From sequence record MF327009: a stretch of DNA of 64,000 nt. The stretch is one strand, 5' to 3'. Of the stretch, positions 1,916 through 60,639 are shown piece after piece (position 1 is the first letter of the stretch; each line of letters starts with the position of its first letter). Below the pieces are notes generated by a model. The model was not told the DNA's origin. It saw only the letters and a list, made by a program, of their open reading frames with translations, and made no database searches. Source of the DNA: Shigella phage Sf25. Both the position numbers and the translations under genes were made by a program.

Positions 1916-3626
1916 TAACCTTAATTGGTTTGTTGGTGTTGTTGAAGATAGAATGGACCCATTAAAATTAGGTCGTGTTCGTGTTCGTGTGGTTGGTCTG
2001 CATCCACCACAAAGAGCACAAGGTGATGTAATGGGTATTCCAACTGAAAAATTACCATGGATGTCAGTTATTCAACCTATAACTTCTGCAGCAATGTCTG
2101 GAATTGGAGGTTCTGTTACTGGACCGGTAGAAGGAACTAGAGTTTATGGTCATTTTTTGGACAAATGGAAAACTAACGGAATTGTCCTTGGCACGTATGG
2201 TGGAATAGTTCGCGAAAAACCGAATAGACTTGAAGGATTTTCTGACCCAACTGGGCAATATCCTAGACGTTTAGGAAATGATACTAACGTACTAAACCAA
2301 GGCGGTGATGTAGGATATGATTCCTCTTCTAATGTTATTCAAGATAGTAACTTAGACACTGCAATAAATCCTGATGATAGACCATTATCAGAAATTCCAA
2401 CTGATGATAATCCAAATATGTCAATGGCTGAAATGCTTCGCCGCGATGAAGGATTAAGACTAAAAGTTTATTGGGATACCGAAGGATATCCGACAATTGG
2501 TATTGGTCATCTTATCATGAAGCAGCCAGTTCGTGATATGGCCCAAATTAATAAAGTTTTATCAAAACAGGTTGGTCGTGAAATTACCGGAAATCCAGGT
2601 TCTATTACAATGGAAGAAGCGGTAACTTTATTTGAACGTGATTTAGCTGATATGCAACGTGACATTAAATCACATTCTAAAGTTGGCCCAGTTTGGCAAG
2701 CGGTTAATCGTTCTCGTCAAATGGCATTAGAAAATATGGCATTTCAGATGGGTGTTGGCGGTGTAGCTAAATTTAACACAATGTTAACTGCTATGTTAGC
2801 CGGAGATTGGGAAAAAGCATATAAAGCTGGTCGTGATTCATTGTGGTATCAACAAACAAAAGGCCGTGCATCTCGTGTTACCATGATTATTCTTACAGGG
2901 AATTTGGAATCATACGGTATTGAAGTGAAAACACCGGCTAGGTCTTTGTCTGCAATGGCTGCTACTGTAGCAAAGTCTTCTGACCCGGCTGACCCTCCTA
3001 TTCCGAATGATTCGAGAATTTTATTTAAAGAACCTGTTTCTTCATATAAAGGTGAATATCCGTATGTTCACACAATGGAAACTGAAAGCGGTCATATTCA
3101 GGAATTTGACGATACCCCGGGACAAGAACGATACAGATTAGTTCATCCAACTGGAACTTATGAAGAAGTATCACCGTCAGGAAGAAGAACAAGAAAAACT
3201 GTTGATAATTTGTATGATATAACCAACGCTGATGGTAATTTTTTGGTAGCCGGTGATAAAAAGACTAACGTCGGTGGATCAGAAATTTATTACAACATGG
3301 ATAATCGTCTTCACCAAATAGATGGAAGCAATACGATATTTGTGCGTGGCGATGAAACTAAGACAGTTGAAGGTAATGGAACTATCCTAGTTAAAGGCAA
3401 TGTTACTATTGTAGTTGAAGGTAATGCTGACATTACAGTTAAAGGAGATGCTACCACTTTAGTTGAAGGAAATCAGACTAATACAGTAAATGGAAATCTT
3501 TCTTGGAAAGTTGCTGGGACAGTTGATTGGGACGTTGGTGGTGATTGGACAGAAAAAATGGCATCTATGAGTTCTATTTCATCTGGTCAATACACAATTG
3601 ATGGATCGAGGATTGACATTGGCTAA
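1899..3626 (+). CDS. 5: gp5 baseplate hub subunit / tail-associated lysozyme (cell-puncturing spike)
   Basis: 575 aa; T4-lysozyme-like segment (EGLRLKVYWDTEGYPTIGIGHL); C-terminal VxGxxxV beta-helix repeats. Confidence 0.95.
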   Translation: MEMISNNLNWFVGVVEDRMDPLKLGRVRVRVVGLHPPQRAQGDVMGIPTEKLPWMSVIQPITSAAMSGIGGSVTGPVEGTRVYGHFLDKWKTNGIVLGTYGGIVREKPNRLEGFSDPTGQYPRRLGNDTNVLNQGGDVGYDSSSNVIQDSNLDTAINPDDRPLSEIPTDDNPNMSMAEMLRRDEGLRLKVYWDTEGYPTIGIGHLIMKQPVRDMAQINKVLSKQVGREITGNPGSITMEEAVTLFERDLADMQRDIKSHSKVGPVWQAVNRSRQMALENMAFQMGVGGVAKFNTMLTAMLAGDWEKAYKAGRDSLWYQQTKGRASRVTMIILTGNLESYGIEVKTPARSLSAMAATVAKSSDPADPPIPNDSRILFKEPVSSYKGEYPYVHTMETESGHIQEFDDTPGQERYRLVHPTGTYEEVSPSGRRTRKTVDNLYDITNADGNFLVAGDKKTNVGGSEIYYNMDNRLHQIDGSNTIFVRGDETKTVEGNGTILVKGNVTIVVEGNADITVKGDATTLVEGNQTNTVNGNLSWKVAGTVDWDVGGDWTEKMASMSSISSGQYTIDGSRIDIG

Positions 3627-4150
3627 TATACTTCCAATGAGCGCTGATTTAGGAGAATCCATGGAAGGTTCTTCTATCGACGTCACCTTTACCGCTCAAT
3701 TAGAAACAGGTGAAACGTTAGTATCTATAAATATAACTAGTTACGAAGAAACTCCTGGGGTTTTAGTAGAAGAAAATCGTTTATATGGAACGTATGAATC
3801 TGTATTTGGATTTGGAAATGATGCGTTGAAATATCGTTTAGACGTTGGTGGTGATTGGACAGAAAAAATGGCATCTATGAGTTCTATTTCATCTGGTCAA
3901 TACACAATTGATGGATCGAGGATTGACATTGGCTAATATACTTCCAATGAGCGCTGATTTAGGAGAATCCATGGAAGGTTCTTCTATCGACGTCACCTTT
4001 ACCGCTCAATTAGAAACAGGTGAAACGTTAGTATCTATAAATATAACTAGTTACGAAGAAACTCCTGGGGTTTTAGTAGAAGAAAATCGTTTATATGGAA
4101 CGTATGAATCTGTATTTGGATTTGGAAATGATGCGTTGAAATATCGTTTA
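3531..4150. repeat. perfect tandem duplication, 2 x 310 bp (3531-3840 and 3841-4150)
   Basis: identical sequence at offset 310; spans gene 5 3' end and gene 5.1 5' end. Confidence 0.95.
3601..3936 (+). other. chimeric ORF created by the duplication: first 80 codons of 5.1 fused in frame to last ~30 codons of gp5
   Basis: 112-aa ORF; C-terminus VGGDWTEKMASMSSISSGQYTIDGSRIDIG is identical to the gp5 C-terminus. Confidence 0.7.
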
Positions 4151-4465
4151 GATAATGAATTTAAAACCGCTGCTTCATGGGAAGACCTTCCAACTGATTC
4201 TAATACTCAGTTATATTTATGGAAAGCTCCTCAAAACCTCCAGAAGACATTCACTTACGAAGTAACATTAATATATGACTACCAAGAACAAGGTGAATCT
4301 GGAGGTTCTGGTAGTAATTCTAGGTCATCTTCTGATACTACTGAACCGACAGATCCTCCTGCTCTAGTAAGAAAAACTCTCGTTAAAAATTATACTAAAA
4401 CTATAGTTGGAAATTGGAGTCGTTGGGCTAATAAACTGAGAAGCTACGTGTATGAGAGGCCATAA
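3911..4465 (+). CDS. 5.1: gene 5.1-like protein (intact second copy)
   Basis: 184-aa ORF from ATG 3911, follows gene 5 as in T4. Confidence 0.7.
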   Translation: MDRGLTLANILPMSADLGESMEGSSIDVTFTAQLETGETLVSINITSYEETPGVLVEENRLYGTYESVFGFGNDALKYRLDNEFKTAASWEDLPTDSNTQLYLWKAPQNLQKTFTYEVTLIYDYQEQGESGGSGSNSRSSSDTTEPTDPPALVRKTLVKNYTKTIVGNWSRWANKLRSYVYERP

Positions 4466-32834: not shown

Positions 32835-33036
32835 TTTTCACCTTTTTATTGATATGTCTTTTTCTATAGACAACTTTTTCTCGAGTTTCAAATTTATTCT
32901 TAGCAGTCATAGCTCGAGCCCATAATACAGCCACTTCTTTCGCCTGTAAGTTTAATTCACGAGCAATTTCAATGAATGACTTTCCAGACTCATGAAGAGT
33001 AAACACCACAACCTCAGTTCTCATAATCAATCTCAT
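32821..33036 (-). CDS. small helix-turn-helix-like protein (T4 24.3 position)
   Basis: 71-aa ORF; FIEIARELNLQAKEV resembles an HTH. Confidence 0.5.
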   Translation of the reverse strand: MRLIMRTEVVVFTLHESGKSFIEIARELNLQAKEVAVLWARAMTAKNKFETREKVVYRKRHINKKVKNGTV

Positions 33037-33326
33037 GTTATCGAGTTGGTGCCATTATATACATCATTTTCTGATTGTGTTTTGTGTGCTTTCAAAATGA
33101 AGAAAGGGGCCGAAGCCCCTTATGTAATACAGCCACTTCTTTCGCCTGTAAGTTTAATTCACGAGCAATTTCAATGAATGACTTTCCAGACTCATGAAGA
33201 GTAAACACCACAACCTCAGTTCTCATAATCAATCTCATGTTATCGAGTTGGTGCCATTATATACATCATTTTCTGATTGTGTTTTGTGTGCTTTCAAAAT
33301 GAAGAAAGGGGCCGAAGCCCCTTATG
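32923..33326. repeat. perfect tandem duplication, 2 x 202 bp (32923-33124 and 33125-33326)
   Basis: identical at offset 202; covers the 5' 38 codons of the small HTH gene, its upstream region and a GGGGCC-GAAG-CCCC hairpin. Confidence 0.95.
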
Positions 33327-53588: not shown

Positions 53589-53954
53589 TTAAATATCAAA
53601 TTCGTTAAGAACTACATCAAAGATTGCTTCAAGATGCTCAGGTTTAGCTCTGTTACTCAGAATATGACGAATCCAAGTTTTAACCAGAAGCTTGCGATTA
53701 ACGCCATTCCAGCAAGGATGAGTCCCTAAATCGCGTTGACGAAAATCATCATCCAAAGCGATTTTGAAGTTGGAACCTTCCATTGTGATTGAAACCGTGA
53801 TGCCATTTTCAAATCGCATATAAACGTAGTTAGGAGTCATATACTGTTCAATTTCGCATACTGATCCATTTTGATGTTTCCAAAGGCAAATAGTATCAAT
53901 AGAACCTGCAATACCATTAGAAACATATTTACGTTCAAAGTTGATGTAGTTCAT
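53589..53954 (-). CDS. hypothetical early protein
   Basis: 121-aa ORF. Confidence 0.55.
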   Translation of the reverse strand: MNYINFERKYVSNGIAGSIDTICLWKHQNGSVCEIEQYMTPNYVYMRFENGITVSITMEGSNFKIALDDDFRQRDLGTHPCWNGVNRKLLVKTWIRHILSNRAKPEHLEAIFDVVLNEFDI

Positions 53955-54022
53955 TTTTATTCTCCGAGATGTTTAATTGCGGTACAGGTATATAATATCA
54001 TATCCTGTACCAAAGTAAACAA

Positions 54023-54355
54023 TTATTTTACTACTTTCCAGTGCTTCATGTCAAGTTTACCAACTTTTTTCATCTTCTCAATTAAGCGTTCGGCACGTTG
54101 GCGAGCTGTAACATAATACCATTCACCTAATTCATTTTGTTCAATTTTTCCAACGATTACTGTATTCAATTCATAAATCCAACCAGTAAAGAAATTATGA
54201 ACTTGAATTGTAAAGGTGAAATCTGTTCCCATACCTTCTGTTGTTTCTACTTCAATAATATCACCTTCAACTGCCATTAAGAACCACATAGTTTCATCAT
54301 ATTTACCATTGAAGCATTTAGTTTTAACTGCAGCGTTCAGATTAATCGTTTTCAT
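54023..54355 (-). CDS. hypothetical early protein
   Basis: 110-aa ORF preceded by an early promoter. Confidence 0.55.
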   Translation of the reverse strand: MKTINLNAAVKTKCFNGKYDETMWFLMAVEGDIIEVETTEGMGTDFTFTIQVHNFFTGWIYELNTVIVGKIEQNELGEWYYVTARQRAERLIEKMKKVGKLDMKHWKVVK

Positions 54356-54382
54356 TTTATTCTCCTTTGTTTCTGTAAGATA

Positions 54383-54411
54383 ATACTAACACAAAGGAAC
54401 CATACTGTAAA
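54383..54411 (-). promoter_or_regulatory. sigma70-like early promoter (-35 TTTACA, 17-nt spacer, TGtTAGTAT)
   Basis: reverse complement of 54383-54412 reads GTTTACA-N17-TAGTAT. Confidence 0.5.
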
Positions 54412-54430
54412 CAACTTTGTGCAATCTTTG

Positions 54431-54460
54431 GAAAATAAAAAAGGACTCCCGAAGGAGTCC
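54431..54460 (-). terminator. rho-independent terminator (GGACTCC-CGAA-GGAGTCC hairpin plus U-run) after the duplicated basic-protein gene
   Basis: perfect 7-bp stem followed on the minus strand by TTTTTTATTTTC. Confidence 0.65.
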
Positions 54461-54465
54461 TCAAC

Positions 54466-54807
54466 TTATGCTTTCTGCTTACCAAAACGAGAAGCATCAT
54501 CTCGAAGAACCGCACGTGCTCGGCGCATGATCTTCTCAACAGTTTGATTGATACGAGAGTTCGACCCACGCTTGTAGCCAGCGCGTTTAGAATCACCAAC
54601 TTTCTTTTCAACTGCTTTCTTTGCTTTAGCTTGTTTTTTCTGCTTACCAAAACGAGAAGCATCATCTCGAAGAACCGCACGTGCTCGGCGCATGATCTTC
54701 TCAACAGTTTGATTGATACGAGAGTTCGACCCACGCTTGTAGCCAGCGCGTTTAGAATCACCAACTTTCTTTTCAACTGCTTTCTTTGCTTTAGCTTGTT
54801 TTGCCAT
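54466..54807 (-). CDS. small lysine/arginine-rich protein carrying an in-frame 55-codon tandem duplication
   Basis: from ATG 54807: MAKQAKAKKAVEKK...RFGKQK then KQAKAKKAVEKK...RFGKQKA; 113 aa, about 58 aa without the duplication. Confidence 0.65.
   Translation of the reverse strand: MAKQAKAKKAVEKKVGDSKRAGYKRGSNSRINQTVEKIMRRARAVLRDDASRFGKQKKQAKAKKAVEKKVGDSKRAGYKRGSNSRINQTVEKIMRRARAVLRDDASRFGKQKA
54472..54801. repeat. perfect tandem duplication, 2 x 165 bp (54472-54636 and 54637-54801)
   Basis: identical at offset 165, in frame within the basic-protein gene. Confidence 0.95.
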
Positions 54808-55095
54808 TATAAATTCTCTTTTAAATGAAAATGCAGGACTTATTGGCATTGCCTGCGCAAGCCCTCAAGGGGAACATAGGTTTTTGGATATTTAACGACC
54901 AGGATAACCATAAACCCGTCATCATACCACCAAGACTTACACAGATAACACTTTTCTGACGCATGATAGTAACATTCAAGAGGTACACCGTAAAACTGCC
55001 GGGGTCTTGAAACTATAATGATTCGCAAATCATTAATCAGACAGTTCGACGGCTCCTCGATTTAGCTCACACTAAGGCAGTGAATCTCCAATAAA

Positions 55096-55344
55096 TTACT
55101 TCAATGTTACCACAAAGTGACGAACTGCTTTTCGTGCAGCAGAAGCCAGAGGCTTAGCATACTTAAGTTCATCTTTTTCCTGGAGCTCAGCAGCTAATGC
55201 AGTTTGAGCAGGATTCAGATGTTTGAAATAACGCAGGATTTCAAGAGCTTCGGCTTCAACATCAATAGATGCGCCATAGTTTTCGTGACCATTATTCCAT
55301 GCGTTTCGTTGCAGTTCAAGAGCGTGTTGTAATTGTTTAATCAT
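55096..55344 (-). CDS. rIII: rIII lysis-inhibition accessory protein
   Basis: 82-aa ORF directly downstream of gene 31 as in T4. Confidence 0.7.
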   Translation of the reverse strand: MIKQLQHALELQRNAWNNGHENYGASIDVEAEALEILRYFKHLNPAQTALAAELQEKDELKYAKPLASAARKAVRHFVVTLK

Positions 55345-55428
55345 TTAAAAATTCTCGTTAGAGATTAAAACTCGGTAGTCACGTTCTTCTGAATTTCATC
55401 TTCTTTCGACAGATCTCTCAGTTGTAGA

Positions 55429-55734
55429 CTAACAGGTAACGAATTTTTGTTTAATTTCTTTTGGCTGCTTAAGACCCAGAGCTACAAAAGGGTGTGGAAC
55501 GTTTCGAATTTGACCAACTGGAAGAGAAGTCAAATCACCAACTTCACAGAAACCTTCAGGAACATCAGGACCAACAGAGTGAACTACACACAGTTCAGGA
55601 ACTTCACCTTGAACACGTTTACCGATAATAAGTCCTGATTCTGTAACTTCTTCATCACCGGCTTGTGCAGGTTCAGAAACTAAAATAACATATTCACCGA
55701 CAGCACGAATTGGTAGCTGTTGTACTTCAGACAT
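55429..55734 (-). CDS. 31: gp31 co-chaperonin (GroES analogue)
   Basis: 101-aa [25 protein letters not shown]...; T4 synteny. Confidence 0.8.
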
Positions 55735-57252: not shown

Positions 57253-57485
57253 AGTACGCCATACACCCTTTGTGCTTCAACTAATCCATCAAAATCCAGT
57301 TTAAGATGTGTTATTTGATCACCATCACCTGGATTCACAATTACTAATACTGAACGAGGAGTTTCGGTAATAACACGAACCGATGTTTCAGGAAATCGTT
57401 CAGAAACCTTATTTACCAATTCCTGAGCAAATAGTTTAACTTTTTCTTGGAATTCTTTAACAGTAATTGGTTTTTCACTTAGCAT
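57249..57485 (-). CDS. hypothetical early protein
   Basis: 78-aa ORF. Confidence 0.5.
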   Translation of the reverse strand: MLSEKPITVKEFQEKVKLFAQELVNKVSERFPETSVRVITETPRSVLVIVNPGDGDQITHLKLDFDGLVEAQRVYGVL

Positions 57486-58006
57486 GTTGATCCCAGCTCC
57501 TTACTTTCAACGTTTTTAACTAATTTGACAGAAACTAATTCGGCATCTTGGGTAATCATTACCGGGCCTTCTTCATACTCTTCAAGATATTCTAGAGCTT
57601 TCTTTTTAGCTTCTTCCTTCGTATCAGTTTGAGCATAGATATAGAACATACAACCAGTAATACCTACTACTTTCCACTTAATTTCTTTATCAGTTTTAAT
57701 TTCAAATTTACTGATAGAGTCATCTTTTTGAACTTCTTCGAAAAAATAATATTCTGACATATAAGTAATTGAAAATAACGGGCTATCTTTATAAGATTCG
57801 CCCATTACATCAACAGCTTTATACCAGCAGTCATCAATTTCACGTTTAATGCTAATAACATTTTTCGCAGAATCTATTTTTACTTTAAATGAATTTTCCC
57901 CAATAAACTTGGCAATTCGTTTATTAGCCCCGCAAGTTTCATTAAAAATATCTTTATATCCAGCTTTAAAGCGATAAACCTTATCTTCTTCAAACCATTT
58001 GCTCAT
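57479..58006 (-). CDS. hypothetical early protein
   Basis: 175-aa ORF preceded by an early promoter. Confidence 0.55.
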   Translation of the reverse strand: MSKWFEEDKVYRFKAGYKDIFNETCGANKRIAKFIGENSFKVKIDSAKNVISIKREIDDCWYKAVDVMGESYKDSPLFSITYMSEYYFFEEVQKDDSISKFEIKTDKEIKWKVVGITGCMFYIYAQTDTKEEAKKKALEYLEEYEEGPVMITQDAELVSVKLVKNVESKELGSTC

Positions 58007-60196: not shown

Positions 60197-60639
60197 TTAT
60201 CCTCTTTTAACTCTTGACGATAATAACATATCATAGTTTTCTGATCATGTACATATCGTTTTACATCATTAAGCCAAATGCGAAATTCCTGGGAATCTTC
60301 AAATGGCATACCGACCCAAGCTTTACCATCAATAACTTTAACTTGCCAGGATAGTTTAGCTTCATCGTATGACTTTATTTGTACTGGCCAATTAGGATGA
60401 ACTGTTTCTTTCTTTACTTCTAGAGGCTTTGTCGAACAACCAACTAGAAGACCAATAGATAATATTACCCAAGCTTTACCATCAATAACTTTAACTTGCC
60501 AGGATAGTTTAGCTTCATCGTATGACTTTATTTGTACTGGCCAATTAGGATGAACTGTTTCTTTCTTTACTTCTAGAGGCTTTGTCGAACAACCAACTAG
60601 AAGACCAATAGATAATATTACTGCTGATAGTTTAATCAT
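60187..60639 (-). CDS. outer-membrane spanin (o-spanin lipoprotein) carrying an in-frame 51-codon tandem duplication
   Basis: 150 aa; signal peptide with lipobox LLVGC; residues ILSIGLLVGCSTKPLEV...DGKAWV occur twice in tandem. Confidence 0.7.
   Translation of the reverse strand: MIKLSAVILSIGLLVGCSTKPLEVKKETVHPNWPVQIKSYDEAKLSWQVKVIDGKAWVILSIGLLVGCSTKPLEVKKETVHPNWPVQIKSYDEAKLSWQVKVIDGKAWVGMPFEDSQEFRIWLNDVKRYVHDQKTMICYYRQELKEDKCK
60314..60619. repeat. perfect tandem duplication, 2 x 153 bp (60314-60466 and 60467-60619)
   Basis: identical at offset 153, in frame within the o-spanin gene. Confidence 0.95.

Follow-up and report, generated by a model that had tools for sequence, protein, structure and literature searches.

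The short Gp31 co-chaperonin gene in the Shigella phage Sf25 genome record probably results from misassembly

Can a T4-like phage do without the C-terminal end of its Gp31 co-chaperonin, or does a short gene 31 in a genome record reflect the way in which the record was put together? This question is raised by the window analyzed here, a 64,000-nt stretch of the Shigella phage Sf25 sequence record MF327009. An earlier note made from the sequence alone had described a 101-aa open reading frame (ORF) ending in KQKFVTC and followed by an 84-nt spacer with an AGATCT palindrome. Taking T4 Gp31 to be 111 aa long, the note had suggested that the ORF may be C-terminally short, with the last ~10 residues replaced. 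We found the ORF as described, on the minus strand at 55429..55734 (MSEVQQ...KQKFVTC, followed by TAG), and the reference length proved to be correct, as T4 Gp31 comprises 111 aa in PDB entries 1G31 and 2CGT and gene 31 is annotated as a 336-nt CDS in the T4 genome (NC_000866). The protein encoded in the window is thus 10 residues shorter than its T4 counterpart.

A search among solved structures returned T4 Gp31 (1G31/2CGT) as the single match for the ORF. All 101 residues of the window protein (codons 1-101, 55432..55734, minus strand) are identical to residues 1-101 of T4 Gp31, giving 100% identity to 1G31 over this range, and the protein displays the high identity, including the long mobile loop, that is expected of a T4-type Gp31. 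It also matches the PHROG 931 profile ('head morphogenesis') with E = 3.5e-43 over profile positions 2-98 of 109. A gene-by-gene comparison with phages SholemSchwarzbard and T4 showed that the order of genes at the locus (cd, 31.2, 31.1, 31, rIII and 30.9) is the T4 order, so that the cd-31.2-31.1-31-rIII synteny expected of a T4-type gp31 gene is present. Judged by sequence identity and synteny, the gene is T4 gene 31; the source phage is T4-like (Tequatrovirus) and carries gene 31 in its normal place.

The earlier note had proposed an alignment to T4 gene 31. DNA alignments of the window to T4 (NC_000866), KRT47, ime09 and RB14 revealed near-identity interrupted only once, by a clean gap of 93 bp on the window side. 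The missing sequence, CACTATAAAGCTATTCCGTGTCTTTATAAGTGATATAAATAATAATATGAATTGGGTGTCGGAATAATAAGTTAACCGAACAATTCTATGTGG, begins directly after codon 101 (ACC TGT) and takes in codons 102-111, the TGA stop and, from the 31-rIII spacer, 60 nt that include TATAAATA. Residues 102-111 (HYKAIPCLYK) are therefore deleted from the window Gp31 and not replaced, in which respect the earlier note was mistaken: the deletion removes these codons together with the stop. The junction lies at 55431..55432 and reads ACCTGT/TAGTCT in the gene strand. The TAG immediately after Cys101 (55429..55431, minus strand), identified from the alignments to the relatives, is in T4 a TAG of the spacer located 31 codons farther and in frame. 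Because the 93 nt correspond to exactly 31 codons, this triplet now serves as an in-frame stop. Relocation of the missing 3' end within the window was considered and rejected, as the segment was not found elsewhere in the window, and inspection of the gene 31 breakpoints revealed neither microhomology nor inverted repeats.

The retained part of the 31-rIII spacer occupies 55345..55428 (minus strand) and is 84 nt long, versus 147 nt in T4. The AGATCT palindrome is indeed present in it, at 55411-55416. The retained spacer is 100% identical in T4, KRT47, ime09 and RB14, and AGATCT is thus no peculiarity of the window. The predicted RNA structure in the spacer did not exceed that of shuffled controls, either for the 84 nt (z = +0.68) or for the full T4 spacer (z = -0.93). 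With folding at the level of shuffled sequence and no terminator-like site in the spacer, we rejected a structured RNA or a terminator as the driver of a site-specific event. The downstream gene rIII, which encodes a lysis-inhibition accessory protein, is intact (55096..55344, minus strand, 82 aa) and 100% identical to its SholemSchwarzbard counterpart. The TATAAATA element that was lost with the deletion lies directly after the T4 gene 31 stop codon, upstream of rIII. It fits the T4 late-promoter consensus; in the window it occurs 19 times against 9.4 expected.

How unusual the loss of these ten residues would be for a protein of this family was evident from comparisons with other Gp31 proteins. 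We aligned the window protein with 22 homologues that share at least 51% identity. All of them but one keep the C-terminal segment HYKxxPCxYK, with the motif H-Y/W-K-x-x-x-C-x-Y, and a set of 19 homologues (identity of 55% or more) shows no variation at H102, K104 and Y110. Only a 103-aa entry deviates; it comes from a 2.1-kb contig, stops within the C-terminal segment and is probably cut. Homologues ending where the window protein ends, which the earlier note had named as evidence against its proposal, were accordingly not found in this set. The window protein itself does not contain the motif characteristic of T4-type Gp31, and PHROG 931 positions 99-109 are left unmatched. A comparable picture was obtained with the Pfam Cpn10 domain (PF00166). 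The window Gp31 is a member of this family, scoring 25.9 bits against a cut-off of 21.1 (E = 1e-5), but its Cpn10 domain is incomplete, without the C-terminal strand that pairs with an adjacent subunit and covering profile positions 2-64 of 93 only, whereas residues 9-109 of full-length T4 Gp31 match positions 2-92 of 93. These profile boundaries and the unmatched PHROG 931 tail indicate that the lost piece is the end of the Cpn10 domain, its last third in Pfam terms, and not an appendage to it.

In cpn10 proteins, the heptamer interface is made by the N- and C-terminal segments; in an alignment with other cpn10s, the T4 segment 'KAIPCLY110' falls on their C-terminal strand, and Tyr110 is an interface contact in 1G31 (PMC2845623). 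Gp31 rings are less stable than GroES rings (PMC6318259). AlphaFold models of the monomers predicted a beta-barrel core for both the 101-aa and the 111-aa form (pLDDT 82.7 and 84.4, respectively), and a truncated Gp31 would therefore not be obviously unfoldable. In the same models, the N-terminal arm and residues ~103-111 have no intramolecular strand partners, which is consistent with a role of both as inter-subunit elements. Seale and Horowitz reportedly observed in 1995 (J Biol Chem 270:30268; listed in PMC2836360) that GroES deprived of C-terminal residues no longer oligomerises. Since the lost segment belongs to the ring interface, a real loss should severely damage, indeed cripple, this essential protein.

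To determine how rare the truncated form is, we searched for the junction with a 40-mer centred on it, which matches only if the join is present (megablast requires an exact word of 28 bases). No match was found in 50,697 phage records, a set that does not include the Sf25 record itself; the close relatives all matched as two pieces, situated 93 nt (or 72 nt) farther apart. The junction pattern was likewise not found in GTDB genomes, JGI metagenomes or IMG/VR, where the silence is weak evidence, as the wild-type version occurs in only two IMG/VR contigs. A relaxed search that permitted any base other than C after ...ACCTGT also gave no match. Upstream of rIII, a gene 31 product of 111 aa was present in all ten contigs listed; the exact rIII protein occurs in 3347 assembly-index blocks, 1168 of them with contigs shorter than 5 kb.

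An exact-sequence look-up of the 101-aa protein returned, apart from contig-end products in Logan, only AUV63344.1, the 'head assembly chaperone' of Shigella phage Sf25. The Logan products derive from three contigs (L003, L004 and L005) of three T4-like strains with ~97% mutual identity, each of which ends at the last base of codon 101. A recurrent breakpoint at codon 101 was considered for these contigs, but we put the coincidence down to a look-elsewhere effect, since the look-up retrieves nothing but products of exactly the queried sequence and hence contigs that end at this codon. A few contig ends are to be expected at any codon, as thousands of fragmentary assemblies include the region.

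We also asked whether the capsid protein might carry a change that offsets a defective Gp31. Mutations in gene 23 known as bypass31 are an escape from the loss of gene 31, according to Andreadis and Black 1998 (J Biol Chem 273:34075) as cited in PMC3012670. The window gp23 (AUV63309.1) is, however, 100% identical to gp23 of SholemSchwarzbard, a phage with an intact gene 31 of 111 aa. This excludes a compensating gp23 change private to the window, and compensation of the bypass31 type was rejected.

The remainder of the record proved to be informative about the origin of the deletion. With SholemSchwarzbard, which is 97-100% identical to the window, as the comparator, we found at least eight further lesions of the assembly type that are private to the record. 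Three perfect tandem duplications of 2.0 copies each, with periods of 310, 202 and 153 bp, are located at the gene 5/5.1 boundary (3531-4152), in the 24.3/hoc intergenic area (32923-33326) and in the pseT.3/spanin region (60314-60621), respectively, with junctions at about 3841, 33125 and 60467, and look like untrimmed contig overlaps. A further tandem duplication of 165 bp (54472..54802, 2.0 copies, 100% identity, junction at 54636/54637) lies inside gene 30.9, where it converts a 72-aa ORF into one of 127 aa with a repeated block of 55 aa; it is not present in SholemSchwarzbard, which is otherwise identical there, and we read it as the trace of an end-to-end join between two overlapping contigs. 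Over the same 68 kb, SholemSchwarzbard contains no tandem duplications of this kind. Two more deletions were detected against the same phage. A loss of 68 nt at ~4539, in sequence otherwise 100% identical, splits gene 5.4 (PAAR-type spike tip) into two frames, and a loss of ~133 nt at ~34395, at the hoc/inh boundary, takes away the beginning of hoc and ~19 codons from the end of inh. The flanks of the latter are 86-92% identical, and part of this difference may be natural, as the region is naturally variable. Both deletions show microhomology of 0-1 nt. Finally, single-base losses at ~51453 in gene 30.1 (T6 to T5) and at ~51825 in gene 30.2 (A6 to A5) cause frameshifts in sequence otherwise identical to SholemSchwarzbard, and homopolymer losses such as these are typical sequencing errors. 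Frameshifts were also the reason why Sf25 was left out of a published pangenome study (PMC8056088). As a separate matter, a 175-aa ORF at 57479-58006, between cd.2 and cd.3, is found in Logan contig L003 and not in T4 or SholemSchwarzbard; no Pfam hit is recorded for it, and it probably represents the kind of variable insert that is ordinary in the hyperplastic regions of T4-like phages.

Neither the gene 31 junction nor the other six structural junctions had a match in the 50,697 phage records. The lesions also cluster: the distance to a duplication junction is 698, 1270 and 794 nt for the three deletions, the last of these values being that of the gene 31 deletion. In a simulation, such pairing of deletions with duplication junctions had a probability of P = 0.004, which argues for a common cause. 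The similarity to SholemSchwarzbard changes near the gene 31 junction. Mismatches are almost nil from 53785 to 55491, with a single one in 54637-55431, and then occur about once per 42 nt (49 in the 2058 nt that follow the join), the first of the 49 lying 60 nt past the gene 31 join. Judged from this pattern, the ancestry signal switches at or very near the deletion junction, which fits a join of separately derived pieces.

The deletion and its uniqueness, seen together with the clustered lesions in the rest of the record, lead us to infer that the gene 31 truncation is probably an artefact of contig joining or assembly. Separate contigs would have been pieced together to give the deposited sequence. 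Overlapping neighbours, once concatenated, would have produced a perfect tandem duplication of two copies; where neighbours did not quite meet, butting them together would have lost a short stretch and left a join that shows no microhomology, and homopolymer errors would have been left uncorrected. The gene 31 lesion would be a join of the gap type, at the far end of a piece of ~0.8 kb that begins at the 165-bp duplication. The living phage would then encode a normal Gp31 of 111 aa, with TATAAATA upstream of rIII, and its reads would contain CACTATAAAGC...CTATGTGG, with none spanning ACCTGT/TAGTCT. It speaks against such an artefact that a gap misjoin would have had to create, by coincidence, a tidy ORF with a stop in frame right at the join. 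This coincidence is tempered by the fact that a random join of any kind runs into a stop after a few codons.

The alternative of a genuine deletion that is fixed in the phage, with Gp31(1-101) made and working well enough with GroEL to fold gp23, seems unlikely to us, although it takes the deposited sequence as it reads. The part that binds GroEL would be intact, given that the first 101 residues, mobile loop included, are fully T4-like, and the core of the monomer is still predicted to fold; the length of the deletion is a multiple of three and leaves a tidy ORF. Deletions without microhomology occur naturally in T4, and illegitimate recombination is a known source of deletions in this phage. 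If the deletion were real, the apical domains of GroEL might template the seven mobile loops without the C-terminal ring strand, or the Shigella host or the temperature of growth might make the requirement less strict, and expression of rIII would depend entirely on read-through from promoters farther upstream. Against this stand the conservation of the lost ring-interface segment in the homologues (bar the one entry that is probably cut), which makes a real loss biologically implausible, the loss of oligomerisation that is said to follow C-terminal truncation of GroES, and the fact that the junction occurs nowhere in the phage records, IMG/VR, JGI metagenomes and GTDB genomes searched. Moreover, the record is demonstrably rich in errors, and the other private lesions of the assembly type make a biological truncation the less likely reading. 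Gp31 is an essential co-chaperonin for the folding of gp23, for which GroES is no substitute (PMC3012670), yet Sf25 was obtained as a plaque-forming phage. That a viable wild Tequatrovirus carries a real 93-bp deletion and makes a Gp31 without the conserved C-terminal interface strand is a still more doubtful proposition.

Least probable, in our assessment, is that the deletion exists in a defective sub-population, or in one of two related phages in a mixed lysate, and that a chimeric consensus was assembled from the mixture, the defective genomes being complemented in trans by co-infecting wild-type phage. Such an origin would agree with the SNP pattern relative to the nearest relative, which switches close to the junction, and the many breaks and overlaps match what de Bruijn assembly of mixed strains is expected to yield. 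Mixtures of this kind, however, are normally removed by plaque purification, and even this scenario would in practice amount to misassembly of the dominant genome.

If the truncation is an artefact, as we consider probable, its significance is that of a data-quality flag. Gene 31 (AUV63344.1), genes 5.4, 30.1, 30.2 and 30.9 and several other places in the record would be unfit for use as natural variants, and the 101-aa 'Gp31' should stay out of protein families as a short isoform. If, on the other hand, the deletion were real, it would be a natural experiment in which a Cpn10 co-chaperonin does in vivo without its conserved C-terminal strand, the one that forms the ring, and a pre-formed ring held together by this strand would be dispensable for the GroEL-assisted folding of a T4-type capsid protein. 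The truncated Gp31 might then assemble on GroEL, or the host or the growth conditions might relax the requirement. Such a result would be of moderate interest to chaperonin specialists and would open no new field.

Among known systems, the closest is T4 Gp31 itself (1G31; 2CGT in complex with GroEL), the co-chaperonin that replaces GroES for the major capsid protein gp23. The window protein shares with it residues 1-101, the position between 31.1 and rIII, and the assignment to both Pfam Cpn10 and PHROG 931, but differs by the absence of residues 102-111, which complete the Cpn10 domain and add to the subunit interface. As written, the window gene 31 thus departs from its family in two defining features: its Cpn10 domain is incomplete, and the conserved motif at the C terminus is missing. 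We see no sign of a new kind of system, and as biology the short Gp31 is most likely not real. C-terminally truncated GroES has had the same part of Cpn10 removed (residue 109 of T4 Gp31 corresponds to Pfam position 92 of 93), but that is reportedly a host protein cut in vitro, whereas the window presents a lesion at the level of the gene in a deposited phage genome. With T4 gene 31 amber mutants and bypass31, a change in gp23 would be the escape if the truncation were real and inactivating; unlike the bypass31 mutants, the window gp23 carries no private change. With misjoined phage assemblies, which contain untrimmed overlaps and concatenated gaps, the window has in common tandem duplications of 153-310 bp, microhomology-free deletions and homopolymer indels.
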